Source: Kiritimatiellia bacterium (GTDB lineage Bacteria; Verrucomicrobiota; Kiritimatiellia; RFP12; DVOR01). From it: a DNA stretch of 40,685 nt. The notes below the pieces were generated by a model. That model saw nothing but the letters and a program-made list of their open reading frames with translations. It ran no database searches and was not told where the DNA came from. The DNA lies in the NCBI GenBank assembly GCA_051892815.1, contig JBJFGP010000185.1:1-40685 (forward strand). Direction: 5' to 3'. Of this stretch, positions 5,701 through 40,061 are shown piece after piece (within the stretch, counting starts at the first letter, position 1; every line of letters begins with the position of its first letter). The translations under genes and the position numbers were made by a program.

Positions 5701-5802
5701 CTCGGGCACCTCTGGGAGGAATAGGTTAGCGGGATTGGGGGCAGCGGGTTGCAAGGTCTGGGAGGCACTGATGGGTATCGACAAGGGGGTGAGGTAGGCA
5801 TC
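5701..5802. repeat. 23-bp-period array of degenerate 10-bp palindrome (5 units)
   Basis: CTCGGGCACC 5701, GGTTAGCGGG 5724, GGTTGCAAGG 5747, GATGGGTATC 5770, GGTAGGCATC 5793. Confidence 0.7.
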
Positions 5803-5847
5803 TTTCGGGGCGGAAGCGATTTTCTTGTGGGAGTCGCGAAAAAGCGT

Positions 5848-5878
5848 TTGACTTGGAGTGCACTCCAAGTGTTATAGT
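5848..5878 (+). promoter_or_regulatory. MerR-type promoter/operator (AdhR/NmlR-like)
   Basis: TTGACT-19bp-TATAGT with perfect palindrome ACTTGGAGTGCACTCCAAGT (5851-5870) over the long spacer. Confidence 0.92.
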
Positions 5879-5885
5879 GGATTGC

Positions 5886-6347
5886 ATGAAAGCCACCGAT
5901 TCCCATCCGGCACGGTTGATGCCGATTGCCGAAGCCGCGGCCCAGACGGGCTACAGCGCGGAGACGCTTAGGTTCTACGAGCGCGAGGGGCTCCTGCCGG
6001 GCATCAGGCGCGAGGGCGGCAAGCGCCGCTACTCGCCGTCCGACCTGCGCACCATCCGGCTCGTGGACTGCCTCAAGAAGACCGGCATGCCGCTGCGCGA
6101 AATCCGCCGCTACATCTCGCTAATTCCCAAGGGTGACCGCTCAGTCCCCCAACGCCTCGCCATGATGCGCCGTCAGCAGGAGGCGGTCGGGAAGCAGTTG
6201 GAAGAACTCCAGGCGTTCGCCGAGCATATCGCCTTCAAGGTGTGGCTCTACGAGACCGCGCTCAAGGAGGGCTTGAAGCAGATGGGCGACATCGACGCCT
6301 GCATCAAACGCTACCGGCAGGAGACCGGACGCCAGACCCGCTTTTAA
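5886..6347 (+). CDS. MerR-family regulator, AdhR/NmlR-like
   Basis: IAEAAAQTGYSAETLRFYEREGLL HTH; conserved Cys in VDCLKKTGMPL; ATG 7 nt after -10 (probably leaderless). Confidence 0.9.
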   Translation: MKATDSHPARLMPIAEAAAQTGYSAETLRFYEREGLLPGIRREGGKRRYSPSDLRTIRLVDCLKKTGMPLREIRRYISLIPKGDRSVPQRLAMMRRQQEAVGKQLEELQAFAEHIAFKVWLYETALKEGLKQMGDIDACIKRYRQETGRQTRF

Positions 6348-6365
6348 CCGAAAGGAAGTGCCCGT

Positions 6366-6932
6366 ATGAACAACCTGTTGAAGGAAGGAATCGTTATGAT
6401 CGGACTCGCCACCAGCCTGCTCGCCGCGCCCCCAAACGTCAGTCGAACCGCCGTCATCTACTACTCCTGGGGAGGCAACACCCGATTCGCCGCCGAGACC
6501 ATCGCCCGCAAGGCAAAAGCCGACCTCTTTCGCATCGAACCACAGGTCGCCTACAGCCGAGACTATGCCACCTGTTGCGACGAAGCCAAGCCCGAATGCC
6601 GTGGGAAAAAACAGCGTCCCATCAAGCCAATCGAAGGGCTCGAACTAAGCAAATACGACACCATCTTCGTGGGAAGTCCCAACTGGTGGGGTACCCTTGC
6701 GCCGCCCGTGCGCACTTGGATTACCCAGAATCAAGCCGCCCTCAAAGGCAAAAAAGTTGCCCTCTTCCAGACCCACGGAGGCGGCGGAATGCAACGCCTG
6801 GGAAGCGATTTCGCGGAACTCGTCGGGCCAAACTCCACGATTCTTCCGCCCAAAGCCTTCTACGGCTCCTCAATCAAGCGCGCCGTCCCTGATCTGGAAG
6901 CATTCGTCAACGAACGAATCAACCAAAAATAG
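6366..6932 (+). CDS. flavodoxin (Flavodoxin_4-like) with N-terminal signal-like segment
   Basis: YYSWGGNTR, YDTIFVGSPNWWGTLAPPV, FQTHGGGG. Confidence 0.85.
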   Translation: MNNLLKEGIVMIGLATSLLAAPPNVSRTAVIYYSWGGNTRFAAETIARKAKADLFRIEPQVAYSRDYATCCDEAKPECRGKKQRPIKPIEGLELSKYDTIFVGSPNWWGTLAPPVRTWITQNQAALKGKKVALFQTHGGGGMQRLGSDFAELVGPNSTILPPKAFYGSSIKRAVPDLEAFVNERINQK

Positions 6933-6939
6933 CCTCAAT

Positions 6940-8022
6940 ATGCCATCCTTTTCCCCAAAGACAGCCCTCCTCTACGGTCTGATGCTGACCTGCTGGAGCC
7001 CCGTGCCCCTGAACGCCGCCCCAAAGATTCCTGCCAACCTCACCATCGCAGAGCAAGGCTTCTTCGCCTCCGGCGGAAGCGTCACACCGCCCCTCCCCGG
7101 CGACTACGATCCGCGCCAAAACTGGCTCGACCCCACACGCGCCGGCAATACCGCGCATATCGACCACGCAAGCGTCTTCTACCAGGTTCCCAGCCAACCA
7201 ACCGGTGCACCAGTCGTCTTCCTCCACGGCTATGGACAGTCGAGACTTTGCTGGATGGCTACCCCAGACGGACGCCCTGGCTGGGCGCAAATCTTCCTCA
7301 AAGCAGGGCACCCCATCTACCTCGTCAACCAGCCCCGCCGAGGCCATGCAGGCGCTACAACACAAGCCAATCTCAGACGCGCGGTAGACGAATGCAAGCC
7401 CGGCGACCAGGCCTGGTATACGCACTTCCGTATCGGACGCGTACCGCCCGAACGCTATTCCGAAAGCCAATTCCCCGAAGGCCCGGGCGCCTTGAACCAG
7501 TTCCTGCGCCAAGCCACCCCAAACACCGGGCCGTACGACGAAAACCTCTTCGGAGAAACCCTCGCCGCCGTCCTTTCGGATGTACGGACGCGGACTGGTC
7601 GCAAGAGCGTCTACATCACCCACTCGCAAGGAAGCCGCATCGGCTGGAACACGCCGGTGGGGGACATTGCCGCCATCATCGCCATCGAACCGGGAGGTAC
7701 CCCGCCCATCGGCGGCAAGCATTTCCGGAAATTGCTCCAAGCAAAGATTCCCATTCTTTTGCTCTTTGGGGATTACATCGACAATGGCCCTGCCGACATT
7801 GCCTCCACTGCTTTCTGGCGGAATATCCGCAACACGGCCCGCACCTTCGCCAAAGCCTACCGCGCGGCAGGTGGGAAGGCAGAGTGCATGGACTTGCCTG
7901 CGATGGGCATCAAGGGTAACAGCCACTTTCTCTTCCAGGAACGCAACAATGACACAATAGCCCGCCTTGCCTTGGAATGGCTGGCAAAGCCAGAAACCAC
8001 GCGAAAGGAACGCAATCCATGA
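6940..8022 (+). CDS. exported alpha/beta hydrolase
   Basis: VFLHGYGQS, WMATPDGRPGW, THSQG nucleophile elbow, GIKGNSHFLFQE; start moved to ATG 6940. Confidence 0.85.
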   Translation: MPSFSPKTALLYGLMLTCWSPVPLNAAPKIPANLTIAEQGFFASGGSVTPPLPGDYDPRQNWLDPTRAGNTAHIDHASVFYQVPSQPTGAPVVFLHGYGQSRLCWMATPDGRPGWAQIFLKAGHPIYLVNQPRRGHAGATTQANLRRAVDECKPGDQAWYTHFRIGRVPPERYSESQFPEGPGALNQFLRQATPNTGPYDENLFGETLAAVLSDVRTRTGRKSVYITHSQGSRIGWNTPVGDIAAIIAIEPGGTPPIGGKHFRKLLQAKIPILLLFGDYIDNGPADIASTAFWRNIRNTARTFAKAYRAAGGKAECMDLPAMGIKGNSHFLFQERNNDTIARLALEWLAKPETTRKERNP

Positions 8023-10103
8023 ACCCAATTCTGGCAACCGCACTTGCCGCAACGGCGGCAACCCTTCATACGGGGGAAATCAAACTTTCGGATGGATGGG
8101 ACAAAACCTTTCCCAAGTCCAGCAAGGTTGAACACGCCAAGGTGACATTCAAGAACCGCTTCGGCATCATCCTAGCCGCGGATGTCTACAAGCCCAAGGA
8201 GGCGAAAGGGAAGCTGGCTGCCCTTGCGGTCTGCGGGCCCTTTGGCGCGGTGAAGGAGCAAGCCAGCGGTCTCTACGCGCAAACGCTTGCCGAGCGGGGA
8301 TTCCTGACCATTGCCTTTGACCCTTCCTACACGGGAGAGTCAGGCGGGGGACCTCGCCATGTCACCTCTGTCGACCTTTCTACGGAGGACTTTTCTGCGG
8401 CTATTGACTACCTGTCGACCCGTAGGGATGCGGATGCGGGGCGGATAGGAATCGTGGGAATTTGCGGCTGGGGAGGCTTTGCGCTCAATGCCGCCGCTGT
8501 GGACACGCGAATCCAAGCAACGGTGGCGGTGACGCTGTATGATATGCACCGGCTGATTGCCAAGGGCTACAACGATTCCGCCGATTCTCCGGCGGCGCGG
8601 CGGGCTATCCGCGAGCGGCTGTCGAAGCAACGGACGGCCGATGCGCGGTCTCACCTGCCGCCCTGCCGCGCGGGCGGGGTGGTGGACCCTTTGCCCGCAG
8701 ATGCGCCCCAATTTGTCCGGGACTACCATGCCTATTACAAAACGCCCCGCGGCTTCCATTCCCGCTCGCTCAATTCGACGGAGGGGTTCAATCTGTCGTC
8801 GCGGCTCGCGCTTGTCAACACGCCGATTCTCGCCTATGCGGAGGAGATTGAAAGTGCGGCTCTGGTGGTGCATGGCGAGTTGGCGCACAGCCGATACTTT
8901 GACGAGACGGTCTTTGCGCGGCTGAAGGGTTCGAACAAGGAGTTGCTCATCGTGCCGGGGGCTTCGCACTGCGATCTCTACGACGGTGGCGGCAAGGGAG
9001 CGATTCCTTTTGATGCCATCGAGGCCTTTCTCCGCAAGCACCTTTCGGGGCGGGCAGAAAGGAAGCCGGCACCACAAGAGGTTGGCAAGATCGCCCCGGC
9101 GGAGTTGACGCCGCGCGAGACGGCGCTTGCGAATGTCGGGGCGGCGACGGCGCTCGGCGACGAGGGTCTTCTGAGGGTATCTTTTGACGCTTGCTTTGAC
9201 GCCGGCGTGACGCTTTCGGAGGCGAAAGAGGCGGTCGGGCACCTCTACGCCTATTGCGGTTTCCCGCGCGCGCTCAATGCCGCTTCGGTATTGATGAAGT
9301 GTGCGGCGGAACGGCATCCGACGGTCGGCGAGGAGGGGCCCGAACCCTTCGTCCTGAGGGACTCTTTCGAGGTGGGTTCCTCCAACCAGACGCGCCTGTG
9401 CGGACGCGAGATCAAGGGCGGTCTCTTTGACTTCCACCCGCAGCTCGACGCCTATCTCAAGGCACATCTCTTTGGCGATTTGTTCAACCGGAAACTCTTG
9501 GATTGGCGCACGCGGGAACTGCTCACCATTGCGGCGTTGGCGGCATGTCCGGAGACCGCCCCGCAGTTGAAGTCGCACCTGGCGGTGGGCAGGCTCAACG
9601 GCATTTCCGAGGCGCAGGCGGAGGCGATTCTCCGCCGCGTCCGCCGTCCCGAAGCCCCTGAAAGTCTGCCGCGGAACTGGTCGTCCATCCCCGTCGGGAA
9701 GCCCAACCTCGCCTACTCGGCGCACTTTACCGGACGGAGTTATCGGCACCCATTGGCGACGCGTCCGGTCGGGTCGGCCGGGGTCTCATTCGAGCCATCC
9801 TGCCGCAACGATTGGCATATTCACCGGGCCGACTCGGGCGGCGGTCAAATCCTCATCGTCACGGCGGGAACGGGGCTCTACCAGGAGTGGGGACGCCCCG
9901 CGCGGAAACTCGTCAAGGGCGAGGCCGTCTTCATTGCCCCGGCTGTCAAACACTGGCACGGCGCCGCGCCGGACAAGTGGTTCCAGCACATCGCCATTGA
10001 GGTCCCCGGCACGAACGCTTCAACCCAGTGGCTTGAGCGGGTCGCGGACGCCGACTACCTCAAAGCCGCGCAAGAGGCCCAAGCGATTCCTGCCAACCTT
10101 TAG
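8019..10103 (+). CDS. fusion: YcjY-like alpha/beta hydrolase + carboxymuconolactone decarboxylase (CMD/AhpD-like) + cupin
   Basis: GPFGAVKEQ, GICGWGG, ASHCDLYD; then LYAYCGFPRALNA and AHLFGDLF; then FEPSCRNDWHIH...GGGQILI...KHWHGA; ATGA overlap with upstream gene. Confidence 0.85.
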   Translation: MNPILATALAATAATLHTGEIKLSDGWDKTFPKSSKVEHAKVTFKNRFGIILAADVYKPKEAKGKLAALAVCGPFGAVKEQASGLYAQTLAERGFLTIAFDPSYTGESGGGPRHVTSVDLSTEDFSAAIDYLSTRRDADAGRIGIVGICGWGGFALNAAAVDTRIQATVAVTLYDMHRLIAKGYNDSADSPAARRAIRERLSKQRTADARSHLPPCRAGGVVDPLPADAPQFVRDYHAYYKTPRGFHSRSLNSTEGFNLSSRLALVNTPILAYAEEIESAALVVHGELAHSRYFDETVFARLKGSNKELLIVPGASHCDLYDGGGKGAIPFDAIEAFLRKHLSGRAERKPAPQEVGKIAPAELTPRETALANVGAATALGDEGLLRVSFDACFDAGVTLSEAKEAVGHLYAYCGFPRALNAASVLMKCAAERHPTVGEEGPEPFVLRDSFEVGSSNQTRLCGREIKGGLFDFHPQLDAYLKAHLFGDLFNRKLLDWRTRELLTIAALAACPETAPQLKSHLAVGRLNGISEAQAEAILRRVRRPEAPESLPRNWSSIPVGKPNLAYSAHFTGRSYRHPLATRPVGSAGVSFEPSCRNDWHIHRADSGGGQILIVTAGTGLYQEWGRPARKLVKGEAVFIAPAVKHWHGAAPDKWFQHIAIEVPGTNASTQWLERVADADYLKAAQEAQAIPANL

Positions 10104-10190
10104 ACCCCAATCCTGCCTATCTTTAGGCTCCATTCCTGCCTACCTCCGAGGGCGAGAGGTTGCAACCTGCCGCCCCAAAAAGTTGCCAAG
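10089..10190. repeat. 23-bp-period array (5 units)
   Basis: CCTGCCAACC 10089, CCTGCCTATC 10112, CCTGCCTACC 10135, GGTTGCAACC 10158, AGTTGCCAAG 10181. Confidence 0.85.
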
Positions 10191-10194
10191 AAAC

Positions 10195-11448
10195 TCACTC
10201 GTCCGAAGTCGAACGGGCAGGCGGCGGGCGGTAGGACCGCGGACGCTGGCGGACGCGGGATCGGGCCTTGATGCGGGCATGGAGTTCAAGCGCCGAACGG
10301 ATACGCGACTCTGCCTCGCGAATGTCGGAATTGGATGGAAAGCGAAGCCGCAAAGCCTCAATCGATTCCAACCCGCGGCGGAGTTCGTCGTCGCGCAAAT
10401 CGGTCGATTCACGGTCAATGTCCGTGAACGCTGCCGCCAGCGAACGCGCCGCCCGGGCCGCTTCAATCTCAGTCGCCGCAAGCGTCCGCTGCGACTGCCG
10501 GTAGGCGAGAAAGAGCGCGGCGAAAAGCCCCAACGCCGTCGCCACAAGCCCACCGGCCGCCGCCAATCCAAGCGGATTCCGTCGCCCCCACAAAGCCACC
10601 CGGCGAGGCCAGGGAAGCGGATGCGCGCAGGTCGGTCGATGCTCCAGAACCCGTTCCAAATCGTCCGCGAATGCCGCCACATCTGCGTAGCGCCGAGCCG
10701 AATCGGAAGCCGTCGCCTTCCCTAGAACATACTCCCGATCGCGAGGGATTCCCGCCCGCTCCGCCAAGGCGCACAACTCCATCAGCGTCACCCCAAGCGC
10801 ATACTGATCGCTCCCCGCGCTCGCCGGCGAACCGGCGTGCAGCTCGGGTGCCATATACCGCCGCGTCCCCGCGCGAACCGCCCCCTCGCCTGCCAAACAC
10901 GCCAGCCCGAAATCACCCAACTTCCACCGACCGTTCGTATCAACCAACAGGTTCTCCGGCTTGATATCCCTGTGCAGCACACCACAGGTATGGGCATAGG
11001 CCAGGGCACGCGCGACATCCACCCCTAGCGACGCCACCTCCCGCCAATCAGAATAGCCCCAATCGCGCGCCGTCCGACCAGGCAAACGCTCCATCGCAAA
11101 GTAGCAAATCCCCTCTGAGACGCCCGCCGAATAGACCTCGACAATCCCAGGATGGTGCAACCGGGCGACCAACCTTCCCTCCTCCGAAAAACGCGTCCGG
11201 CAAGCCGTATCCTGCGCAAGACCAGGGCGCAAAATCTTCAACGACACCAGGCGATCGAGCGATACCTGCCGAGCCTCGTAGACGATACCCATCGCCCCCC
11301 GACCAACTTCCCCCTGCACCTGAAAGTCGCCACCCAAGAGTTCCGGGAAAACAAACGCCCCGCCCGGCATCGCTGGAATGCCGGACAGGGCGTCAAGCTC
11401 ATCTGCCAGAGCCTTCAAGTGCAAGGGAAGGCGCTCGTCCGGAAGCAT
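10195..11448 (-). CDS. Hanks-type Ser/Thr protein kinase with one TM helix
   Basis: GRGAMGIVY, SLKIL, HRDIKPEN, DFG, YMAPE; hydrophobic LGLAAAGGLVATALGLFAALFLAY. Confidence 0.92.
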   Translation of the reverse strand: MLPDERLPLHLKALADELDALSGIPAMPGGAFVFPELLGGDFQVQGEVGRGAMGIVYEARQVSLDRLVSLKILRPGLAQDTACRTRFSEEGRLVARLHHPGIVEVYSAGVSEGICYFAMERLPGRTARDWGYSDWREVASLGVDVARALAYAHTCGVLHRDIKPENLLVDTNGRWKLGDFGLACLAGEGAVRAGTRRYMAPELHAGSPASAGSDQYALGVTLMELCALAERAGIPRDREYVLGKATASDSARRYADVAAFADDLERVLEHRPTCAHPLPWPRRVALWGRRNPLGLAAAGGLVATALGLFAALFLAYRQSQRTLAATEIEAARAARSLAAAFTDIDRESTDLRDDELRRGLESIEALRLRFPSNSDIREAESRIRSALELHARIKARSRVRQRPRSYRPPPARSTSDE

Positions 11449-11999: not shown

Positions 12000-12102
12000 G
12001 GGTAAGAGGATGAAAAAGGATTGAATCAGGGTGAACTTTACCTGTGGATTCGGGGAGTGGATTGCGTTCTATAGTGGATGAGGAAGGAAAGGTTTCGCCA
12101 TT

Positions 12103-13463: not shown

Positions 13464-14258
13464 ATGTCGCTGATTCGATTCTTTGCAACCTTTCTGCTGA
13501 TTGCCGCCTGCGCCGCGCCGTTGTCCACGGTCGCCAAGGGGGCCCGCGCGAAGCAATCCGAGCACCAGCACGAACGCACAATCGAGCTGCGGAGACTGGA
13601 GCCGTTTCGTTCCGCGGAGGGTTTTGAGGGACGGCTGAGGTGGTCGGAATATGCCTTCAATGCCCAGTCCAAAGGGGAGCCGTTGCTGCTCGTGGTACTG
13701 GGCGGACGCAACGCACTCCGCCGCGGCGATGCGGCTTCCGAAGTGCCGGCGGCATTGACGCGGGGAGCCGACTTTGCGCGAAACCAAATCAAGAACCGCC
13801 CAGTCTACATCCTTCTCCCGGATGCCTATTCCGAGGGTGGAGACGCGCCTCGGAGGCGGCGTCAAGGTGGAGCATTCGAGGGACTTCCCAAGGTCGTCCG
13901 CGAGCGCGCCGAAGCCCATCGCATCAAGCCCGAGAATATCCGCGCGGCCGGCTTTTCGATGGGTGGCGGTGCTCTCTGGAGTTTGCTGAACGAGAATCCG
14001 TTTCTCTTCCACAAAGCGGTCATTGTCGGCGCATCGGGCGACCCTTCGCGAATGGGTAGCATCCGTGCCCAGACGCGTGCCTACCACGGCGACGAGGACC
14101 AGACCATTCCCCTCGCCCGTGCCCAGACCTTTGCCGCCGCGCTGGAAACCAAGCGTCCCGGTCAGCATCGACTGGAAGTTCTCAAGCGCACTGGCCACGC
14201 CGAGTCGGAGAAGTGCGCCTTCGCGAAACCAGCGCCTTGGCAATGGCTTCTGAATTGA
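13464..14258 (+). CDS. exported serine hydrolase (phospholipase/carboxylesterase or predicted peptidase family)
   Basis: GFSMGG, YHGDEDQTIP, GH; signal peptide; GAGGAGG RBS before ATG 13464. Confidence 0.75.
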   Translation: MSLIRFFATFLLIAACAAPLSTVAKGARAKQSEHQHERTIELRRLEPFRSAEGFEGRLRWSEYAFNAQSKGEPLLLVVLGGRNALRRGDAASEVPAALTRGADFARNQIKNRPVYILLPDAYSEGGDAPRRRRQGGAFEGLPKVVRERAEAHRIKPENIRAAGFSMGGGALWSLLNENPFLFHKAVIVGASGDPSRMGSIRAQTRAYHGDEDQTIPLARAQTFAAALETKRPGQHRLEVLKRTGHAESEKCAFAKPAPWQWLLN

Positions 14259-14334
14259 ACGCACCTTTCGCCCCCGCAGATTGCAACCTCAACAACCCAA
14301 AGGAACACACCCTATGAACCCGAAGATAGCCACG
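14256..14334. repeat. 23-bp-period array (4 degenerate units)
   Basis: TGAACGCACC 14256, GATTGCAACC 14279, GGAACACACC 14302, GATAGCCACG 14325. Confidence 0.55.
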
Positions 14335-15255
14335 ATCGTCCTCGCGACCTTGCTTGGAATCGCTCTCGCCCCAGCCGCCGAAACGCCCCCGCGCCAACCC
14401 AATCCCGAGGCCAAACTCCACCGCTTCTCAACCACCATCGAAAAGGAGCGTCCAAGCCTCGACGAAGAGACCCGCCGCCTCATTTCCGCCTACCGGCGCG
14501 ACCCATCCGAAGCCAACCGCCGGGCCCTGGAAACCAAGGTTGCGCAGAACTACGATGCCGTCCTTGCCCGCAAACGAAGCAAGCTCGCCGACCTTAAAAA
14601 GACCGCCCGCCACCAGTCGAAAGTCAAGGAAATGGAGACTATCATCGCCGAGATGGAGCGCGACCGAACCCAGCGAATCAAACAGTCGATAAGCCGTTTT
14701 ACCGACCCGAGAATGCGCCCCGGCGTGCGGGATGCCAAGGCTGGATACCACCCGCTGATCGGCTCGGAAGACCACACTCTCGAAGTCAGCCACCTCCCTG
14801 TGTCCAACGCCGAATACGCCCGGGTCGAACCCACCTGGCCGCTGCGCGACAACCGCCCCGTGGTCGGTATCGCCTACACCAACGCGGTAGCCTACTGCGC
14901 CTATCTGACCGCCCAAGACCCGCACCACACCTACCGCCTCCCGACCGAGACCGAGTGGGAACTCGCCGCAGGGCACATGCCCAAAGACGCCGACTTCAAC
15001 TCCAAAGGCGAATGCGGCAAACTGATGGATGCCAACGCCTCGTCCAACACGCTTGCCGCCTGCGGCGCGGTCGACATGTGGGGCAACGCCTGGGAGTGGA
15101 CCAGCACGCCGCGAACGGCCCATCGCTATGCCGTCAAGGGAGGCTCCTTCAGCACCCCGCGCACCCAGTGCCACACGGAAAACCGGACCGAATCGCGCCT
15201 CGATTCCGTCCCGCAAAACGATACCACATTCCGCCCCGTACGCTCTCGAAAATAG
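14314..15255 (+). CDS. exported FGE-sulfatase/SUMF1-fold protein, paralog of 12103-13437
   Basis: Signal peptide MNPKIATIVLATLLGIALAPA; YRLPTETEWELAAGHMPKDA, DMWGNAWEW, KGGSF. Confidence 0.8.
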   Translation: MNPKIATIVLATLLGIALAPAAETPPRQPNPEAKLHRFSTTIEKERPSLDEETRRLISAYRRDPSEANRRALETKVAQNYDAVLARKRSKLADLKKTARHQSKVKEMETIIAEMERDRTQRIKQSISRFTDPRMRPGVRDAKAGYHPLIGSEDHTLEVSHLPVSNAEYARVEPTWPLRDNRPVVGIAYTNAVAYCAYLTAQDPHHTYRLPTETEWELAAGHMPKDADFNSKGECGKLMDANASSNTLAACGAVDMWGNAWEWTSTPRTAHRYAVKGGSFSTPRTQCHTENRTESRLDSVPQNDTTFRPVRSRK

Positions 15256-15330
15256 CGCATTGCCGCACGGGAACAACGCCAACGGGCGGGCATCCGTCGC
15301 ACGACGCCCCGCCTTGACAAGGAATCAATT

Positions 15331-15432
15331 TCTGCCAACCTTTGGGAGTGACTGGTAGCCACCATTCGCTCCATCTGCTACGCACGAATCGCACGCAGAG
15401 ATTGGCACCTCTATTCCCGATTCGTGCCAATC
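15331..15432. repeat. 23-bp-period array (5 units, possibly extending to 15285)
   Basis: TCTGCCAACC 15331, GGTAGCCACC 15354, GCTACGCACG 15377, GATTGGCACC 15400, CGTGCCAATC 15423; GGCGGGCATC at 15285 in phase. Confidence 0.8.
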
Positions 15433-15474
15433 TTATGGGCTCGATCTCAAGTTGCCGCGGGAGACGCGGATGGC

Positions 15475-17526: not shown

Positions 17527-17979
17527 CTACTCGGCTTCGCAGCGGATTTCCATCGAGACGGGGCCGTCGTTGACGAGTTCGACTTGCATATCGGCGCCGA
17601 AGCGACCGAAGGCGACGCGGTCGGGGCCGAGTTCTTCGGTCAGGCGCCGTTTCATCAGCTCGTAGAGCGGCTCGGCGAGGGCGGGGGGCGCGGCGAGGGA
17701 GAATCCCGGGCGGTTGCCGTGGGTGAGGTCGGCGTAGAGGGTGAACTGGGAGACCAGCAGGACGGAGCCTCCGACATCGCGGATGGAGCGGTTCATTTTC
17801 CCGGCTTCGTCCTCGAAGATTCGTAGGCACAAGAGTTTGCGAAGGGTGCGTTCGACCTGCTCCGGCTGGTCTCCACCTCCGACACCCATCAGTACCAAGC
17901 AGCCGTGCCCAATCCTGCCTACCTCTTCTCCTCCGATTGTGACGGAGGCGCGGGTGACGCGTTGGAGGAAGAGTTTCAC
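17527..17979 (-). CDS. dtd: D-aminoacyl-tRNA deacylase
   Basis: QRVTRASV, LRIFEDEAGKMN, VSQFTL, GNRPGF, NDGPV; GTG start. Confidence 0.95.
   Translation of the reverse strand: MKLFLQRVTRASVTIGGEEVGRIGHGCLVLMGVGGGDQPEQVERTLRKLLCLRIFEDEAGKMNRSIRDVGGSVLLVSQFTLYADLTHGNRPGFSLAAPPALAEPLYELMKRRLTEELGPDRVAFGRFGADMQVELVNDGPVSMEIRCEAE
17845..17923. repeat. 23-bp-period array inside dtd (4 units)
   Basis: GGTGCGTTCG 17845, GGTCTCCACC 17868, AGTACCAAGC 17891, CCTGCCTACC 17914. Confidence 0.55.
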
Positions 17980-17983
17980 GGCA

Positions 17984-27837: not shown

Positions 27838-28767
27838 GTGGATCTTTCTCTTGCCAAGGGCGAAGAGCCCTGCTTTGAGCGGATTTGCCGCATTTCCTTG
27901 CCGCCCGGGAGTCTTTCGGATACGGCTCTTCTAGAACTCGTCTCGGCACGATTCACCTACCGTTCGCTAGACGAATGGGCGCAGGCGCTAGCCGAGAAGC
28001 AGCTTGAACGCTGTGGTGATGCGCTCCTCTTTCATCCCCCTCTCCTGCCCGAACCCGAAGTCGACTGGGACTGCCGAATGCTCCACGAAGACGAGGAAGT
28101 TCTGGTTATCGACAAGTCGGGCAATCTGCCTTGCCATCCGGCTGGACGATTCTTCAATCACACCCTCTGGGCGCTGCTCAAACACAAGGGTCTCGAAGCC
28201 CCCCAATTCGTCAACCGTCTCGACCGCGAGACCTCCGGCATCGTGCTGGTAGCCAAGACGGCGCAAGCCTGCAAGGAGTTGCGGCGCGAGTTTGCCGCGC
28301 AGCGCGTCGAAAAACACTACCAGGCTGCGGTCGAAGGTACTCTTCATTCCGCGCAAACGGCCCGAGGTACCCTCGCGCAAGCCCACACGCCGATCCGAAA
28401 GAAGCAGGAGTTCCGCTTCGATTCCAACGGCTCCGTCATCACTGAATTCACCCCCCTCGCGCATCGAAACATGCCCGAGTTGACCCTGCTCGACATCCAC
28501 CCCATCGGCGGGAAACTCCATCAGATACGCGCGACGCTCTTGGCTTGTGGCTTCCCTTTGGTCGGCGACAAACTCTACGGCGTCGACGAAACCATCTACC
28601 TTCGTTTCGCCAAAGGGCAACTCACGCCGACCGACACCCTTCGCCTCCGCATCAAGCGGCAAGCCCTCCACGCCGCCACCCTAACCCTGCGGCGGCATAG
28701 CGAAACCTGCCGCTACGAAGCCCCCCTTCCCTCCGACATCGCCGGGCTCTTCCAGGCCCACGATTGA
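27838..28767 (+). CDS. RluA-family pseudouridine synthase
   Basis: IDKSGNLPCHP, NRLDRETSG, HQIRA, GDKLY, QALHA. Confidence 0.9.
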   Translation: MDLSLAKGEEPCFERICRISLPPGSLSDTALLELVSARFTYRSLDEWAQALAEKQLERCGDALLFHPPLLPEPEVDWDCRMLHEDEEVLVIDKSGNLPCHPAGRFFNHTLWALLKHKGLEAPQFVNRLDRETSGIVLVAKTAQACKELRREFAAQRVEKHYQAAVEGTLHSAQTARGTLAQAHTPIRKKQEFRFDSNGSVITEFTPLAHRNMPELTLLDIHPIGGKLHQIRATLLACGFPLVGDKLYGVDETIYLRFAKGQLTPTDTLRLRIKRQALHAATLTLRRHSETCRYEAPLPSDIAGLFQAHD

Positions 28768-28890
28768 TACCAACCACTATCCCCGAAAGGTTGCTACCCG
28801 CCCCCCGCGCAGATAGCAACCTCTTCCCTCAAATCCAACCTATCTCGCCCCCCAACTGGTTGCAACCAAGGTCGACGCGAGGTGGGCAGC
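28766..28890. repeat. 23-bp-period array (6 units)
   Basis: GATACCAACC 28766, GGTTGCTACC 28789, GATAGCAACC 28812, CCAACCTATC 28835, GGTTGCAACC 28858, GGTGGGCAGC 28881. Confidence 0.9.
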
Positions 28891-29934: not shown

Positions 29935-32496
29935 CTAGTTCTCCGCCCCTTCCGAAGGTTCGGCAGCCTCCCCCTCCTGCTCAGCGGTCAGAGCCGATTC
30001 ATTGTCCGAATGCAACTCCAAATCAGTCACCCCAGAGGGCGCATAATTGTCAAGATCCACCAGAATGGTACGGGCAGCAGCACCGTTGGAGGGACCAACC
30101 ACCCCGTTCTCCTCCAACATATCCATCAGGTTCGCCGCTGTATTGTACCCAATCTTCAGATTGCGCTGAAGCGAAGAGGTCGATGCCCTCCTCGTCCGCC
30201 GCAAAACTTCAATCGCTTGGGCGTAAAGAGGGTTGTCCTCGGGGCCGGAGGTGGCCACCCCTTCGGGTGCGGGAATGGCACTTTCCGGTGATGTTTCTTC
30301 CCCGCCACCACCGAATTGTTCGAGTTCCTCGTTCGGGTCTGCTTCCTTGATGCTGGCCAGGCGCCTACGCAGGTCTTCGTCGAAACTAGTCGGACAATGT
30401 TCCTTGATGTAGGCTATCACCCGGGCCAATTCCTCGTCACGCATAAAGGCGGATTGTGCCCGCACAAGGTGGGAAACCTTGGGATTTTTGAAGAGCATAT
30501 CTCCGCGCCCGATGAGGGTTTCGGCGCCAAGGTCGTCGAGGATAATTCGGCTATCTGTGCCGGAAGAGACTTTAAGCGCGATGCGGCCGGCAATGTTGCC
30601 TTTGATCTGACCGGTTATCACGTCGGTGGAGGGGCGCTGGGTTGCAAGGATGAGGTGGATGCCTACGGCGCGGGACTTGGCGGTCAAACGAGCGATGCAG
30701 TTTTCCGCGTGTTTGGCGGTCTGCTTGTCGGCATTCATAATCTCGGCCACTTCGTCGACAACGACGACGATGTAGGGCATGGGTTTGGTGTCGCGCTCGG
30801 CCATCTCCTGGTCGAGGGGTAGGACGGTCTGGTGGCAGCGGTTGTATTCGACGATGCTTCTGCATCGGGCGTCTTCGAGGATGCGATATCGGCGTTCCAT
30901 CTCGACGACGGCCCATTGGAGTCCGAAGGCGACTTTGCGGATATCGGTGATGACGGGGACGAGCAGGTGGGGGAGGTTGTCGTAGGGGGCGAACTCGACT
31001 CGTTTGGGGTCAATCATGATGAACCGCACCTCTTCGGGGCGGCGGGACATGAGCAGGCCGACGATGATGGAGTTGACACAGACGCTCTTGCCGGAGCCTG
31101 TAGTACCGGCGACGAGGAGGTGCGGCATATCGGCCAAATCGGCGACGAGGTCTTTGCCTTCGGCGTCCTTGCCGATGGACATGGGGATGCGGAATTTACG
31201 GGTGGCCTCCTGCCAGGTTTTTCCTTCGAGGACTTCGCGCACGGTGACGGTTTTGGCGACTGCGTTGGGGATTTCGAGTCCTACAACTCCTTTGCCTGGG
31301 ATTGGCGCCTGAATGCGGAGGCTCTTGGCGGCGAGGCGCATCATCAGGTCTTTGGATTTGCCGCTGATGGCGTTGACGGGCACGCCGCGGTTAGGCAGGA
31401 GTTCGAACTGGGTGACCACGGGTCCGCTGACCACATTGGTGACCTGGACATCGATTTTGAATTCGGCGAGGCAGTCGACGACGGCGGTCTTGATGAGTTC
31501 GACATCTCCGGCTTCGGCCTGATCGGAGGAAGGCGGATCGAGCAGGTCGAGAGGTGGCAATGGATAGGGGGCATTGGTGGCAACCTCTTGTCCGGAAGGT
31601 TGGCAGGTCTGTGGGGCGGAGGTTGCCACCTCCGGCTCCTGGGGATTGGTATCAACCGGTTGCTGCTGCGCCTCGCGCTGACGGCGCAGGGCTTTGGCGG
31701 ACTCCTCCTGTTTGCGGCGCAAATTGGCCTCACGCTGCTTCTGGAGTTCTTTTGGGGAGAGCACAAGAGCAGAAGTCGCACGCTCGTCCGCCCGGGCCTG
31801 GCGAGCCTCCTCCTGCGCGGCGCGAATTCGCTCCAGCTGCTCGACGGAGGCTTCGCGCGGCAGGGACTCTTCGAGACGCTTCCGGCGGGATTCGCGGTAA
31901 GTCTCGAACCCGGCTCCGACTGCGCCCACGCCTCGGACAAACAGCGCCACCGCGGTGCGCACGCCAATCAGGAAGAGCACCAAGACCGCAAGCAGGATGA
32001 CAAGCAAAATCGCCGTTCCGACCGGACTGACGAGCCGTTCGAGCGCGCAGGTCACCAGCCAATACCCGACCGCCCCGCCGGCGTTGGGCAGAAGGTTGAG
32101 ATTCGCCAACAAGGGGCGAAACAGTTCAGACCGGAGTTGAATCAGCGAGGAAACCACAATCTGAATTCCCACCAGCAAAAGCATCCGCCTGCGCGCCGCC
32201 TGCGTCCGCCCGCAAGCCTGAAGAATCGAGTGCGCCAAGACCGACAGCGGCAGCAGCCAGTAGCCAATCCCCAGCAGGCTGTACCCGTAGAAAGTCAGCC
32301 ACGCCCCGACCAGCCCGATGGCATTGTGCGGCGGATTGTTCGCAGGCGAACACAGTTGGGGAATGTCCCGCCAATCGTATGTCAACACCGCCAGAATCGG
32401 GAAGACCATCAAGAGCGCGGCTATCCCTCCAGCCAGCCGCCGGAATGGCTGCTGCTCCGGAGAAACCTGCGACTTCTGCGACTCTCTACTGCTCAT
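29935..32496 (-). CDS. ftsK: DNA translocase FtsK
   Basis: N-terminal TMs, PHLLVAGTTGSGKS, IDPK, LATQRPS, gamma domain STSSLQRNLKIGYN. Confidence 0.97.
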   Translation of the reverse strand: MSSRESQKSQVSPEQQPFRRLAGGIAALLMVFPILAVLTYDWRDIPQLCSPANNPPHNAIGLVGAWLTFYGYSLLGIGYWLLPLSVLAHSILQACGRTQAARRRMLLLVGIQIVVSSLIQLRSELFRPLLANLNLLPNAGGAVGYWLVTCALERLVSPVGTAILLVILLAVLVLFLIGVRTAVALFVRGVGAVGAGFETYRESRRKRLEESLPREASVEQLERIRAAQEEARQARADERATSALVLSPKELQKQREANLRRKQEESAKALRRQREAQQQPVDTNPQEPEVATSAPQTCQPSGQEVATNAPYPLPPLDLLDPPSSDQAEAGDVELIKTAVVDCLAEFKIDVQVTNVVSGPVVTQFELLPNRGVPVNAISGKSKDLMMRLAAKSLRIQAPIPGKGVVGLEIPNAVAKTVTVREVLEGKTWQEATRKFRIPMSIGKDAEGKDLVADLADMPHLLVAGTTGSGKSVCVNSIIVGLLMSRRPEEVRFIMIDPKRVEFAPYDNLPHLLVPVITDIRKVAFGLQWAVVEMERRYRILEDARCRSIVEYNRCHQTVLPLDQEMAERDTKPMPYIVVVVDEVAEIMNADKQTAKHAENCIARLTAKSRAVGIHLILATQRPSTDVITGQIKGNIAGRIALKVSSGTDSRIILDDLGAETLIGRGDMLFKNPKVSHLVRAQSAFMRDEELARVIAYIKEHCPTSFDEDLRRRLASIKEADPNEELEQFGGGGEETSPESAIPAPEGVATSGPEDNPLYAQAIEVLRRTRRASTSSLQRNLKIGYNTAANLMDMLEENGVVGPSNGAAARTILVDLDNYAPSGVTDLELHSDNESALTAEQEGEAAEPSEGAEN
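31553..31653. repeat. 23-bp-period array inside the FtsK linker (5 units; one 22-bp step)
   Basis: GGTGGCAATG 31553, GGTGGCAACC 31576, GGTTGGCAGG 31598, GGTTGCCACC 31621, GATTGGTATC 31644. Confidence 0.8.
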
Positions 32497-35047: not shown

Positions 35048-37032
35048 ACTTCTTCGGAGGGCGACTCTGCCTGGCGTTCCTTCTCGGTCCGGATATGCCC
35101 GAGCTTGACAAGGTCTTCAACCGCGCGTCCGTCGAGCGTCTCTTGGCGGAGGAGTTCCTCGACCAGGCGTTCAAGCGTTTCTCGGTTCGCGTTGATAAGG
35201 GTTGTAGCCCGGTCGAAAGCCTCCTTGAGCAGGCGGTCGATCTCCTCGTCAATGAGTCTGGAGGTGGCTTCGCTGTGTTCGTTGCTGCGCTGGACTTCTC
35301 TACCGAGGAAGAGGAGTTCCTGGTTGTCGCCGTAGGAGCGGAAGCCGATGCGGTCGCTCATGCCGTAGGTGCAGACCATACGCTGGGCTATGCGGGTGGC
35401 CATCTGGATATCGGCGGCGGCACCGGTGGAGATATCGTTGGTGTAAAGGTGTTCGGCGATGCGGCCGGCGGTCAGGACAACGAGGTTGTCGAGGAATTCG
35501 GCGCGAGTCCGGTTGAGCACATCACGCTCGGGAAGGCTCATCGTCGCGCCCAAGGCCTGGCCTCTGGGGATGATTGTGACCTTGTGGACGGGGTCGGTAT
35601 GTTCGCAGAGGACTTGGGCCAAGGCGTGGCCGGATTCGTGCCAAGCGGTGATGCGGCGGTCGCGGTCTTCCATAGCCCTTGAACGGCGTTCGCGGCCCCA
35701 GAGGACTTTATCGCGCGCCTCTTCGAGGTCGGAATGAAGGATGGCGTTGTGGGAGCCTCTGGCGGCGATGAGGGCGGCTTCGTTGAGGAGGTTGGCCAAG
35801 TCGGCTCCGGAGAAGCCCGGGGTACCTCTGGCGATGCGGGTCAGGTCTGCGCTCTTGGCGAGTTTGACCTTTCGGGCGTGGAGTTTGAGTATTTCGAGAC
35901 GGCCGTCGATGGTGGGCAAGTCGATGACGATTTGCCTGTCGAATCGGCCGGGGCGGGTCAGGGCCGGATCAAGGACATCGGCGCGGTTGGTGGCGGCCAT
36001 AACGATGACGCCGCTGTCTGAGGAAAAGCCGTCCATTTCGACGAGCATGGCGTTGAGGGTCTGCTCGCGTTCGTCGTGACCTCCGCCGATGCCGGTAAAG
36101 CGGCTGCGGCCGATGGCGTCTATTTCGTCGATGAAGATGATGCAGGGGGCATTCTTGCGGGCCTGCTCGAACATGTCGCGCACTCGGGTGGCGCCGATGC
36201 CGACGAACATTTCGATGAAGTCGGAGCCGCTGATGCTGAAGAAGGGGACTCCGGCTTCGCCTGCGATGGCCTTGGCCAGCAGGGTTTTACCGGTTCCGGG
36301 CGGCCCCATCAGCAGGACGCCTTTGGGGATACGCGCGCCGAGGGTTTTGAACTTGTCCGGGGTCTTGAGGAAGGCGACCATTTCGGCGACTTCTTCCTTG
36401 GCCTCCTTGATTCCGGCGACATCTTTGAAGGTGATGCGGCGCTTGTCGGGCGTCAAGGTCTTGGCCCTGGATTTGCCGAATGCGAGGGCACTGGCCTGGG
36501 AGTTGCGAATCATCCGGAAGATGAAGAGCAGGCCGATGAACATCAGGCCGCCGAGGATTAGATTGGGCAGCAGCGTCTTCATCAAATCGTTCTGGTACTC
36601 AATCGTGAGCGCGACGCCGTGCTGAGAGAGTTTGTTCTCCAATTCGGCCGAGGGAATGACATTGACTCGGTAGGCGGTCTGGGAATTTCCGGGGAGCGGA
36701 CCGGTCAGATAGGAGACCGTGGAATCCTCGCGCACGAGGGTCGTCTTCTGGATCTCTCCTTTATCGACAGACGCCCAGAAGGTCTTCTGGTCCCACTCCT
36801 TGAGGTTGGCACCCGAGACAGGATTCTTGACTGTCGAGAGCATCAGCAGCGCCAGCAGCCCAACCCCCAGCCAGGCTACGAGATTCTTGCGGCGGTTGGC
36901 TTCTTCAGGGGCGCCCCCCGGCAGAGGGCGGCGCGGTGGATTCTTGGGGGGCGAGGGCGGCGCGGAACGGCGTTTGGGCGCGCCGGAACCGTCCTTGCGG
37001 GAATTGCGGGGCTGGGAAGCAGGTTGATTCAT
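35044..37032 (-). CDS. ftsH: ATP-dependent zinc metalloprotease FtsH
   Basis: [27 protein letters not shown]; start set at ATG 37032 because the ORF-track ATG lies upstream of the -10 box. Confidence 0.97.
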
Positions 37033-37061
37033 GCACAATCCATTCGTGGCGATGTCTCCCC

Positions 37062-37090
37062 AGTATACCATACTTCAAGCCGCCATTCAA
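37062..37090 (-). promoter_or_regulatory. sigma70 promoter of ftsH operon
   Basis: TTGAAT-17bp-TATACT with extended TGn. Confidence 0.75.
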
Positions 37091-37139: not shown

Positions 37140-37226
37140 GGCGGATAGGCACCTTTCCCTCCCCAAGATAGCCACCTCCTGACGCCACAGGTGCCAACCA
37201 GCGCCCCCAAAAGGTGCCTATCCGCC
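37140..37226. repeat. 23-bp-period array (4 units) bounded by a perfect 17-bp inverted repeat
   Basis: GATAGGCACC 37144, GATAGCCACC 37167, GGTGCCAACC 37190, GGTGCCTATC 37213; GGCGGATAGGCACCTTT 37140-37156 / AAAGGTGCCTATCCGCC 37210-37226. Confidence 0.9.
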
Positions 37227-37254
37227 GCCCGCGCCGGTGTCCGACCGCTTCTGC

Positions 37255-39052: not shown

Positions 39053-39071
39053 CATTCTTCGCACCTTGAAG

Positions 39072-39110
39072 GAGGCGGCTGGGGCGATTGGCGCCACAGC
39101 CGCCTCTTTT
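39072..39110 (+). terminator. intrinsic terminator
   Basis: GAGGCGGCTG...CAGCCGCCTC-TTTT. Confidence 0.75.
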
Positions 39111-39149
39111 CGTCTATCCAAGTTTTTCCCCGCCGGATGCGCTCTGGTG

Positions 39150-39178
39150 TTGCTTTCCCGTGGCAAATCCAGTAGAAT
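39150..39178 (+). promoter_or_regulatory. sigma70 promoter
   Basis: TTGCTT-17bp-TAGAAT. Confidence 0.55.
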
Positions 39179-39220
39179 AAAGGTGTCTACGATTTACATG
39201 CACTCCAAGGTACGACTGTG

Positions 39221-39739
39221 ATGAAAAAAGCATTGAGTCTCCTCTTTGTCGCTTGCGCCCTCTGTTGCGCGCCCCTGCTCGCCCAAAGCGAGAATCAAAA
39301 GACCTACGATCCTGCGCCGGTTGCTTTCAACACCAGCACCGAGGCGGATGTCGTCGGGGTTCGTTTCAACTTTCCCTTTGGCCGTTGCGAGCAGGTGACC
39401 GGCTTCGATTTGGGGCTTCTGGGCAATGCCAACAATTTCTTTGGCCTCCAGCTCAACATTCTTCGCAACAAGACCATCGACCGCATGGAAGGTATACAGA
39501 TTGGGCTCGTCAATCTTGCCGGCAATGCGTTTGGACTTCAGGCCGGGCTTTGGAACGAGAATCTGACTGCGGGCGGTTTCTCCGTGGGGCTGGTGAATGT
39601 TGCCGACCACCATTCGGGCATGCAGATTGGAATCATCAACCGGTGCGAATCAATCGATGGTTATCAGATTGGCGTCGTGAATGTCATCCGCTCCTCGGCG
39701 GTGCCTTTCTGCCCTGTCATCAACTTCACTTTCGACTGA
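39221..39739 (+). CDS. exported GxQxGxxN-repeat protein (LA_2272/VC2662-like surface repeat)
   Basis: Signal peptide; repeats GIQIGLVN, GLQAGLWN, GMQIGIIN, GYQIGVVN; C-terminal PVINFTF. Confidence 0.8.
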   Translation: MKKALSLLFVACALCCAPLLAQSENQKTYDPAPVAFNTSTEADVVGVRFNFPFGRCEQVTGFDLGLLGNANNFFGLQLNILRNKTIDRMEGIQIGLVNLAGNAFGLQAGLWNENLTAGGFSVGLVNVADHHSGMQIGIINRCESIDGYQIGVVNVIRSSAVPFCPVINFTFD

Positions 39740-39913
39740 GTTTCTGCCCGCCCCTTTGCCGGCAACTGCGTACGGAGGCTGTGTGCCGTTGGCCAGAAGG
39801 GTGCATTTTTCCGTCCCTGTGGAGCCACTTCGGCAAGCCGCGGCGGTGCTGGTTTGACAATCGCGTTTCTTCTCGCAAGCCCATAGGTCTAAACACAATG
39901 CGCGGCAACGATT

Positions 39914-40061
39914 GGTGCTAACCTGTTCCTCTGGGTGGTGCCAACCTGATGGTCCGAGAGGTTGCTTGGACGGGGGCGGGCAGGTTGGTATGATTGGGAT
40001 GCATTCGTTTACAGGTCCATCGGCTGGTGCAGGGGGACGGATGGCGCAGGAGGTTGCCGAT
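39914..40061. repeat. 23-bp-period array (4 clear units + 1 in phase)
   Basis: GGTGCTAACC 39914, GGTGCCAACC 39937, GGTTGCTTGG 39960, GGTTGGTATG 39983, GGTTGCCGAT 40052. Confidence 0.75.

Follow-up and report, generated by a model that had tools for sequence, protein, structure and literature searches.

The genome to which the window belongs carries arrays of a GGT-N4-ACC dyad that recurs every 23 bp, and this recurrence is real and far beyond chance. The window is the whole stretch of 40,685 nucleotides analysed here (contig JBJFGP010000185.1 of a gut Kiritimatiellia bacterium), and the genome scanned was its own (G000, 2.15 Mb, 93% complete). Our preferred reading, to which we give somewhat less than an even chance, is that the arrays are putative cooperative protein-binding sites at transcription-unit boundaries, genus-specific and genome-wide. 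The anatomy of the arrays, their statistics and distribution, their retention between species, the higher conservation of the dyad and the lack of RNA-type covariation are observed; protein binding, its cooperativity and the boundary role are what we infer.

We located 1107 GGTNNNNACC sites genome-wide. Pairs of these sites were spaced by 23 bp in 108 cases, by 46 bp in 77, by 69 bp in 47 and by 92 bp in 12, while non-phased spacings were nearly empty (six pairs at 22 bp, none at 24 bp and about 0-3 at the others). For the looser pattern GRTNNNNAYC, the four phased spacings held 229, 173, 113 and 34 pairs. A 3-unit PWM scored above 10 at 1934 genome positions against 3 in 50-nt block shuffles, and above 15 at 1503 positions against none. 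Consecutive PWM matches were separated by a step of 23 bp 770 times, of 22 bp 28 times and of 24 bp five times. The spacing counts, the comparison with shuffles and the layout in 23-nt rows bear out the earlier note, which had reported phased arrays and proposed a spacing histogram as a check; the genome-wide peaks fall at 23, 46, 69 and 92 bp. The census comprised 447 arrays, covering 1.7% of the genome, and 315 of them have 3-6 units. Array size is bounded, with 144 arrays of three units, 106 of four, 61 of five and 4 of six. One array is found every 4.8 kb, in agreement with the previous estimate of roughly one per 4 kb.

In the window, nine arrays were called by PWM and 3-unit detection (Table 1), and nine of the ten loci listed in the earlier note thus hold. 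The tenth, at 22209, is not supported: it reached a best 3-unit score of 6.6, and the shuffled genome itself has 10 positions above 5. The locus listed at 17845 is weaker yet significant, given that shuffles never exceeded 15. Tandem Repeats Finder detected one array alone in the window, at 10088-10145 (period 23); the others are invisible to it because their units are too diverged.

Table 1. Phased arrays called in the window (1-based coordinates).
Position	Strand	Units	Evidence	Location
5735..5803	- (C-rich strand)	3 scored	Total score 38; 23-nt rows	Flanked by a tRNA gene (5442-5512, -) and a divergent + gene
10088..10179	+	4	PWM, 23-nt rows; Tandem Repeats Finder	Fills the entire 92 bp that separate the convergent ORFs 7977-10103 (+) and 10195-11448 (-)
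14255..14346	+	4	PWM, 23-nt rows	Overlaps the stop codon of ORF 13434-14258 as well as the likely start of the next + gene
15330..15444	+	5	PWM, 23-nt rows	Downstream of ORF 14281-15255 (+)
17867..17935 (listed locus 17845)	+	3 (weak)	Total and best 3-unit score 19.8	
28765..28879	+	4 scored in 5 slots	PWM, 23-nt rows	Starts at the stop codon of ORF 27838-28767 (+)
31541..31654	-	5	PWM, translation	Inside the FtsK ORF (29935-32496, -); encodes a linker stretch at about aa 281-319
37143..37234	+	4	PWM, 23-nt rows	Divergent region between ftsH (35044-37071, -) and a + gene
39902..39993	- (G-rich strand on +)	3 scored	PWM, 23-nt rows	

The gene overlapped by the array at 14255 likely starts at ATG 14314, which is followed by a signal-peptide-like sequence. 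Downstream of the array at 37143, promoter-like hexamers, a Shine-Dalgarno sequence and a candidate start at ATG 37323 were read by eye. In the FtsK array, one step measures 22 bp, so that the reading frame is intact. Because ORFs run through them, the arrays can confuse gene calling.

The 23-bp unit is directional and consists of the dyad A-GGT-N4-ACC-T and a C-rich spacer. Units are arranged head-to-tail within an array, with the C-rich stretch about one helical turn from the dyad. The 13-bp spacer follows a directional consensus, roughly T-yy-ss-CCCCC-r-A-A, and is occasionally flipped; the spacers are therefore not free, as had been supposed. The variable positions of the unit are saturated, while GGT/ACC and the 23-bp phase persist. 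Unit-unit identity was 0.386 within the same array and 0.376 between different arrays; units in matching slots were 0.383 identical and those in different slots 0.376. Neither comparison shows any sign that units or slots share an ancestor. Around 167 arrays, the 46 nt upstream and downstream carried no information beyond the unit, i.e., no leader, tail or TIR. At the arrays covered by strain contigs (96.6% and about 92% identical), which align ungapped, no change in unit number was found. As the earlier note had argued, the arrays are thus not slippage repeats (VNTR): the units of one array are no more alike than units across arrays.

The conserved dyad spans 10-12 bp and is palindromic at its outer 3-4 bp, while the centre is anti-palindromic, with a complementarity of 0.16 at positions 3-6 against 0.33 expected. 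No base-pair covariation was found across the dyad centre, across the spacer or between units, which fits the recognition of sequence rather than of a folded strand. Non-B structures are subject to limits on loop and stem length. Phased C5/G5 runs, which return every 23 nt in 4-5 copies, might form a G-quadruplex or i-motif, and the palindromic outer dyad positions might form cruciforms, acting on supercoiling or replication. The loops between runs measure about 18 nt, the dyad stem is just 3-4 bp, its centre avoids complementarity, and the C-run is less conserved than GGT/ACC in the sister species; we hold this explanation to be highly improbable.

A role at the RNA level, in which the arrays would serve as C-rich 3' UTRs for Rho loading (rut-like), as RNA-stabilising regions or as short processed RNAs, appears improbable. 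It would account for the strand bias near genes, since arrays no more than about 30 nt from a stop have a C-rich mRNA strand 59 times and a G-rich one 25 times (binomial p = 3e-4), and the array at 10088-10179 leaves no space for another terminator in its convergent gap. It would also fit the lack of enrichment of terminator-like hairpins in positions 5000-24999 of the window (21 vs 22.2 in shuffles). An Rfam search of the window at the gathering score matched a tRNA alone, and the earlier statement that the arrays are not terminators stands for intrinsic ones. The same Rfam result and the lack of covariation speak against an RNA function, and the latter also against the short processed-RNA arrays suggested earlier. 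Array fold z-scores of -1 to -4 arise from chance pairing of units that share a motif, a complementary partner in the same array being present for 9.8% of units vs 9.5% expected. In addition, divergent regions hold 45 arrays, 55 arrays run antisense to the genes on either side, and the relative orientation of neighbouring arrays along contigs is random (81 same, 76 different). This random orientation also disfavours the earlier idea of segregation or repair sites, insofar as these would form a polar signal.

The sister species G001 (95% complete) shares 90-92% nucleotide identity with the window's genome. In alignable DNA, an orthologous array was kept for 37 of 37 arrays; 24 of these orthologues are ungapped and three have unit-size gaps (23-35 nt). 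The array at 28765 has such an orthologue with conserved cores and diverged spacers, and the FtsK-linker array is conserved in G001 and ungapped in strain contigs. Identity to G001 at the core bases G, G, T, A, C and C was.95,.85,.91,.87,.86 and.93, against.69-.84 at spacer positions. Given the consensus base, identity was 0.913 in the core (n=819) and 0.824 in the spacer (n=890); third codon positions were 0.819 identical. The dyad thus shows extra conservation over the rest of the array, though of moderate extent. Whole arrays change fast (0.192 substitutions per bp vs 0.117 in other intergenic DNA), and indels are not depleted in them (6.7 per kb vs 3.1 per kb).

The closest published family is BrickBuilt of Porphyromonas gingivalis (Klein et al. 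2015, PMC4596501), described as a dispersed, intergenic 23-nt minisatellite/MITE whose unit is conserved in its first half and variable in its second. It has 19 copies with leader and tail segments bearing IS5-like inverted ends, contains 1 to 22.8 near-identical units that differ in number between strains, and has no explained function, although promoter activity was reported nearby (PMC4596501). The window family likewise has a half-conserved 23-nt tandem unit at many intergenic loci by housekeeping genes, but it differs in its lack of conserved flanks, including a leader or tail with IS5-like ends, in its about 315-447 loci with 3-6 saturated units, in its lack of unit-number polymorphism and in one copy inside a gene (FtsK).

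This precedent (PMC4596501) favours a somewhat unlikely alternative, namely a dispersed minisatellite, selfish or neutral, whose arrays would be decayed BrickBuilt- or MITE-like copies from a genus ancestor with no host function, tolerated where harmless (after stops, ahead of promoters or within a disordered linker). An overall array rate at or above the synonymous rate, the in-frame copy within the FtsK linker and the restriction to one genus described below would be accounted for, and the avoidance of 5' leaders is expected from purifying selection against insertions. Less easily explained are the persistence of dyad and phase in units that show no trace of common descent, the higher identity of the dyad than of spacer consensus bases, the full retention in G001 and the lack of conserved leader, tail or TIR flanks. 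In neither G000 nor G001 was a RAYT, rve or full IstB gene found, but this absence is weak evidence because MAGs frequently miss IS copies.

A second published parallel is found at the ends of IS21, where direct repeats stand 23 bp apart, 2-5 per end, each with a pair of conserved blocks about a turn from each other, and are bound cooperatively by IstA on underwound DNA (PMC10122671). The window arrays show this 23-bp spacing with at least two repeats. In view of BrickBuilt (PMC4596501) and of the 23-bp IS21 end sites (PMC10122671), the label "undescribed" in the earlier note was too strong. It is very unlikely that we are dealing with transposon ends, solo or fused (IS21-, Mu-, Tn7-type multi-repeat termini), or with derived MITEs, mobilised in trans. 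The period and the 4-5 units do equal those of IS1491, an IS21-family element with five 23-bp units at its left end and four at its right, beside istA/istB. The IS21 repeats (PMC10122671) form the inverted ends of an istA/istB element with a conserved terminus, whereas the window arrays are solo, without a conserved terminus or inverted array pairs and in random relative orientation, and they are stable in position at all 37 aligned loci. The window unit is also unlike that of IS1491. Searches of G000 and G001 for an rve-domain gene gave no match, and the best IstB match in G000 is a partial AAA+ hit covering model positions 97-196 of 238. The window family therefore has the defining features of neither BrickBuilt nor IS21 ends.

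Other repeat classes were also compared. REP/BIME elements are 20-40-bp stem-loop palindromes tagged GTAG/CGTC and linked to RAYT. Plasmid and phage iterons comprise 4-7 direct repeats that recur about every 22 bp, with one protein bound per repeat. Iterons lie at a single origin beside a rep gene, unlike the window arrays, which occupy hundreds of chromosomal loci. As in the window family, which is high-copy (447), mostly intergenic and genus-restricted, REP/BIME elements occur as hundreds of short, lineage-specific palindromic repeats in regularly spaced groups between genes, often at gene 3' ends (cf. PMC3733652). The window dyad is too short for this class, its centre is anti-palindromic, stem or flank covariation is lacking, and no Y1 transposase was found: RAYT (PF01797) had 0 matches in G000 and G001, in which MAG gaps are possible, while control genomes matched. 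The earlier exclusion of REPs is thereby upheld. A CRISPR array, in which identical repeats of at least about 23 nt alternate with unique spacers at least similar in length, was rejected given a conserved part of 10-12 bp, an 11-13-bp spacer with its own consensus and at most six units.

Context statistics, which rest on ORFs from our own crude gene caller, place the arrays in intergenic regions of all three types (convergent, divergent and tandem) as well as in one coding linker, that of FtsK, in line with the earlier claim that arrays occur regardless of gene orientation and inside coding sequence. Among the 315 arrays with at least three units, 66 are located over 150 bp inside a called ORF; the others are intergenic or lie at contig edges. 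Arrays occupy 35-50% of the 120-399-bp intergenic regions of each kind, except for divergent regions of 120-199 bp (5/16, 31%). Strong sigma-70-like sites within 100 bp of an array fire away from it in 87 cases and toward it in six, against 125 and 48 for random placements in array-free regions (Fisher p = 2e-5). The arrays follow stop codons or precede promoters and almost never separate a promoter from its gene. Array-promoter distances are broad, about 20-90 bp, and therefore show no activator-like register.

On the protein-binding reading, a putative sequence-specific DNA-binding protein would take one 23-bp unit, about two turns of DNA, per protomer or dimer, and may polymerise cooperatively along one face of underwound DNA, by analogy with IstA on 23-bp IS21 end repeats and Rep proteins on about 22-bp iterons. 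Since arrays lie after stops and upstream of promoters, the complex would act as a marker or insulator at the borders of transcription units. The family probably arose when a BrickBuilt-like dispersed minisatellite was amplified in the genus ancestor, and it was then retained. The exact phasing, bounded array size, saturated spacers, complete retention in G001, promoter-side placement and IS21 precedent argue for protein sites; the fast evolution of whole arrays, the undepleted indels and the broad promoter distances argue against them, and the FtsK-linker array fits poorly with a role at boundaries. No candidate binding protein for the arrays was found.

Among 341 Kiritimatiellia genomes, the GGT-N4-ACC dyad class was found only in the window's genus (g1), with any match in 3 of 41 relatives and in 2 of 301 class genomes, and just one match in genome G002; the ftsH neighbourhood of five genomes of other genera held no array. 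Sister Kiritimatiellia genera carry 22/23-bp arrays at much lower density, each array with its own palindrome even within one genome. One sequence-specific protein cannot explain such array-specific palindromes, which may instead reflect a mechanism that generates arrays or a factor that senses structure. Gut Bacteroidales MAGs also contain dispersed 23-bp palindrome arrays with different cores. Like those of the window, the Bacteroidales and sister-genus arrays combine a 10-14-bp palindrome with a spacer of about 10-13 bp at a period of 22-23 bp and are intergenic, adjoining housekeeping genes. They differ in their cores, e.g., the fully palindromic AGGT-AGCT-ACCT class of Bacteroides, and in their often near-identical units, up to 10. 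An Rfam search of seven Bacteroidales loci returned nothing at E <= 0.1, and we saw no published description of phased arrays in Bacteroidales or the sister genera.

A broader, rather doubtful proposal is that the window arrays are one case of cross-phylum "phased palindrome arrays", including BrickBuilt, that load putative polymerising DNA-binding proteins demarcating transcription units, one dyad class having become fixed at about 450 boundaries in this genus. The traits of this class, observed here in Kiritimatiellia and gut Bacteroidales, are a 22-23-bp period, 4-5 or more units and an intergenic location. The same architecture in sister genera, gut Bacteroidales and BrickBuilt makes a common ruler likely, which by analogy with IS21 ends is likely to be two turns of underwound DNA and could be studied in cultivable Bacteroides or Porphyromonas. 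Even if the arrays were merely selfish DNA, they would be an unusual repeat, without termini, exactly phased, with saturated spacers and stable over the long term. If they are protein-loading platforms, about a third to half of the mid-sized intergenic regions of this genome would hold a dedicated architectural site, and the arrays would represent bacterial chromatin or transcription-unit demarcation of a not yet described form.

When the loci proposed in the earlier note were laid out in rows of 23 nt, a core repeating every 23 bp became visible. The genome holding the window (G000; 2,148,632 bp in 251 contigs, 61% G+C, 93% complete) contains 1107 sites matching GGTNNNNACC, pairs of which lie 23 bp (108 pairs), 46 bp (77), 69 bp (47) and 92 bp (12) apart; distances of 22 and 24 bp account for 6 and 0 pairs, respectively, and elsewhere the number is about 0-3. 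Using a position weight matrix (PWM) from 367 seed units, with the score added up across three slots at 23-bp intervals and 50-nt block shuffles as the control, we identified 1934 positions above 10 bits (3 in the shuffles) and 1503 above 15 bits (0 in the shuffles). Clustering yielded 447 arrays, of which 144, 106, 61 and 4 have 3, 4, 5 and 6 units, respectively, while the remainder have 1-2 scored units each. The arrays sum to 35,786 bp (1.67% of the G000 sequence), with one array per 4.8 kb. Based on the PWM and 3-unit clustering, the window holds nine arrays; among the ten loci originally proposed, that at 17845 is weak yet significant (score 19.8) and that at 22209, with a score of only 6.6, fails.

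The unit is directional, with A-GGT-N4-ACC-T followed by a C-rich stretch with r-A-A at its end; thus, the spacers, previously described as free, carry a consensus. Spacer orientation is flipped in occasional individual units. No conserved sequence was found in the flanks of 167 arrays, and the signal ends sharply on both sides. Unit identity was 0.386 within an array vs 0.376 between arrays, indicating no closer kinship inside arrays, and a slot-specific signature was likewise absent (0.383 in the same slot, 0.376 in different slots).

DNA of the sister species G001, whose public record is titled 'Kiritimatiellia bacterium', is 90-92% identical to that of G000. All 37 G000 arrays in aligned regions (about 272 kb of G001) have an orthologous array, 24 of them ungapped and 3 with gaps of 23-35 nt. 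In the conservation test, which covers these two species, identity per position over 170 units was.85-.95 at GGT/ACC,.71-.82 at the centre and.69-.84 in the spacer, the reference values being.819 for third codon positions and.883 for other intergenic DNA. Conditioned on the consensus base, as a guard against ascertainment, identity was.913 in the core vs.824 in the spacer. The arrays are fast-changing overall (0.192 substitutions per bp between the two species), and indels in them are not depleted, an uninformative comparison given that alignments inside arrays produce paired gaps. In strain contigs, one 96.6% identical and the others about 92%, unit number is unchanged in the arrays starting at 28765, 31541 and 37143, with parts of 28023-30023 lacking cover in sequencing runs X2, X3 and X13; the sole change at these arrays is the loss of a single nucleotide (37236), seen in one run. 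Right next to the array at 39902-39993, contigs of two related-strain runs join across 39752-39910 with an equal-length, diverged segment.

The central four bases of the core (positions 3-6) are anti-palindromic, with a complementarity of 0.16 vs 0.33 expected; at positions 4-5 the values were 0.31 vs 0.39. In the G000 arrays, covariation was found neither between the halves of neighbouring cores nor between flanks, whether compared over the centre or over the spacer, and among any two units of one array a complementary partner occurred in 9.8% of cases vs 9.5% expected. Single arrays fold favourably (z from -1 to -4); since there is no covariation, these folds and their long stems are chance pairings of units that share a motif. 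On the strength of three separate covariation and complementarity tests, we rejected hairpin and cruciform readings, and that the arrays act as non-B DNA is extremely unlikely. An Rfam search of the window and seven Bacteroidales loci returned nothing relevant.

Based on our own rough codon-usage gene caller, on which all context figures rest, the 315 arrays of three or more units are distributed as follows: 66 sit >150 bp into a called ORF, 73 point in the same direction as the genes on either side, 55 are antisense to both, 47 and 45 lie in convergent and divergent gaps, respectively, and 29 at contig edges; the G000 background comprises 855 tandem, 150 convergent and 141 divergent gaps. Roughly 35-50% of the 120-399-bp gaps of each kind contain an array, except for divergent gaps of 120-199 bp, where the share is lower (5 of 16). 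The array at 31541-31654 is genuine coding sequence within the FtsK linker, where one 22-bp step keeps the frame. In the window, an ATP-dependent 6-phosphofructokinase gene (18677-20041, minus strand) and a PPi-dependent phosphofructokinase gene (20197-21483, plus strand) are divergent neighbours; the latter was missed by the caller, which suggests that its codon usage is atypical.

Of the strong sigma-70-like sites located no more than 100 bp from an array, 87 are directed away from it and 6 toward it, vs 125 and 48 for random placements in array-free gaps (Fisher p = 2e-5). Therefore, arrays are found ahead of promoters or past the ends of genes and hardly ever in 5′ leaders. The array-to-promoter distance is broad, about 20-90 bp. 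Two individual promoter-like pairs were also recorded. At 5848-5880 of the window (plus strand), upstream of ORF 5853-6347, a near-consensus -35/-10 pair 19 bp apart contains a perfect 16-bp palindrome in its spacer, the layout of MerR-type promoters; by eye, the predicted product of the ORF looks MerR-like at its N-terminus. The other pair lies on G000 contig C57, downstream of the array at 3652-3766 (about 65-110 bp away); its spacer is made up of some 20 consecutive G residues, and it may be either an assembly artefact or a phase-variable promoter.

Where arrays abut a stop codon, the C-rich strand is the mRNA strand in 59 cases vs 25. Such a bias would be expected if arrays transcribed in the C-rich sense had an RNA- or Rho-type role, an unlikely explanation for elements whose orientation is otherwise random (neighbouring arrays same in 81 cases, different in 76) and which carry no pairing signal. 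Array orientation is weakly linked to local GC skew (134 concordant vs 82 discordant, p = 0.002). The random orientation along contigs, together with the weakness of this link, led us to reject a replication-polar signal of the KOPS or Chi kind.

Our literature searches returned no paper on this 23-bp array element. PMC10122671 describes IS21 ends as direct repeats 23 bp apart, with two conserved blocks each about one turn apart, which IstA binds cooperatively, wrapping underwound DNA. PMC4596501 describes BrickBuilt of Porphyromonas gingivalis, a 23-nt minisatellite dispersed between genes: one half of its unit is conserved and the other variable, the element is bounded by a leader and a tail that carry IS5-like inverted ends, and it is present in 19 copies with 1-22.8 units each. 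Both have the 23-bp period in common with the arrays described here. These arrays, however, conform to the definition of neither: they have no flanks or termini, their units are bounded in number, saturated and without polymorphism, and neither G000 nor G001 yielded an rve, a full IstB or a RAYT gene. Derivation of the arrays from transposon ends, to which the period might point, is very unlikely. We consider an origin as a selfish, now immobile minisatellite somewhat doubtful.

Among the public-genome matches listed, dispersed 23-bp arrays occur in many gut Bacteroidales MAGs and in Bacteroides timonensis. They are intergenic and lie beside housekeeping genes, with up to 10 units, fully palindromic versions of AGGT-N4-ACCT as cores and spacers in either orientation. 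Many of the other matches listed are 23-bp tandem repeats with no relation to this family or are IS21-type ends, which the loose pattern of the scan also catches, and the scan is uninformative on frequencies. One IS21-family end of about 120 bp, matching 52 plasmid records, is the left end of IS1491 in a Pseudomonas plasmid. A phage and plasmid search with a Bacteroides array returned one unannotated phage record and no plasmid; the viral contigs with the pattern proved to be perfect tandem repeats of other kinds.

We counted 23 matches to the triple GGT-N4-ACC pattern in G000, 15 in G001 and one in G002 (a sister genus), vs none in 38 other relatives; a sample of 301 genomes from across the class contained two with the pattern, G000 and, with its single match, G002. 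The ftsH neighbourhood lacks an array in five genomes from other genera. Motif-free autocorrelation on 322 kb from four sister genera (G002-G005) gave arrays at lags 22 and 23 and at no other lag of at least 17 that is not a multiple of three; below lag 17, there were one or two single matches at 14 and 16 bp. The lag-22 and lag-23 arrays number 6 and 3 in G002, 2 (lag 22) in G004, 1 in G005 and none in G003. They adjoin housekeeping genes and have 4-5 units, each array with its own 10-14-bp palindrome and unrelated spacers.

Locations of 23-bp and related arrays in other genomes
Feature	Location	Source	Remarks
Bacteroidales arrays	L032:3785-4001; L011:7546-7693; L018:2850-2928; L055:776-946		about 30 further loci
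IS1491 ends	L162:5010-5130 and 7560-7660		direct repeats, exact 23-bp period; five units left, four right
Sister-genus array	L141:17788-17900	G002	
Further sister-genus arrays	L143:16421; L143:2461; L154:5561 (G004)		
Sister-genus arrays	L156:3837-4090; L157:19678	G005	

A screen of small, basic, codon-adapted ORFs for a binder gave no specific candidate; judged by eye from N-terminal sequences, the candidates were ribosomal, HU-like, YbaB-like and Ala/Lys/Pro-rich H1-like proteins and a serine recombinase. GntR/HutC operators have a GGT...ACC-type dyad. The GntR proteins (two each in G000 and G001, five in G002, none in G004 or G005) were rejected as binders, being ordinary long sugar-type regulators unlinked to arrays.

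The arrays keep an exact phase and a bounded length, their variable positions are saturated while the dyad persists, their locations have long been stable, and a pairing signal is lacking. Together, these features lead us to favour selection for a sequence-specific ligand, putatively a protein, which would read each unit and stack along one face of the helix. Because the protein search came up empty, we hold this reading tentatively. The placement of the arrays suggests a boundary or architectural role. Additionally, the fact that arrays of the sister genera each have a palindrome of their own points to a cause of the 22-23-bp period broader than a single protein, either a ruler or a generating mechanism.
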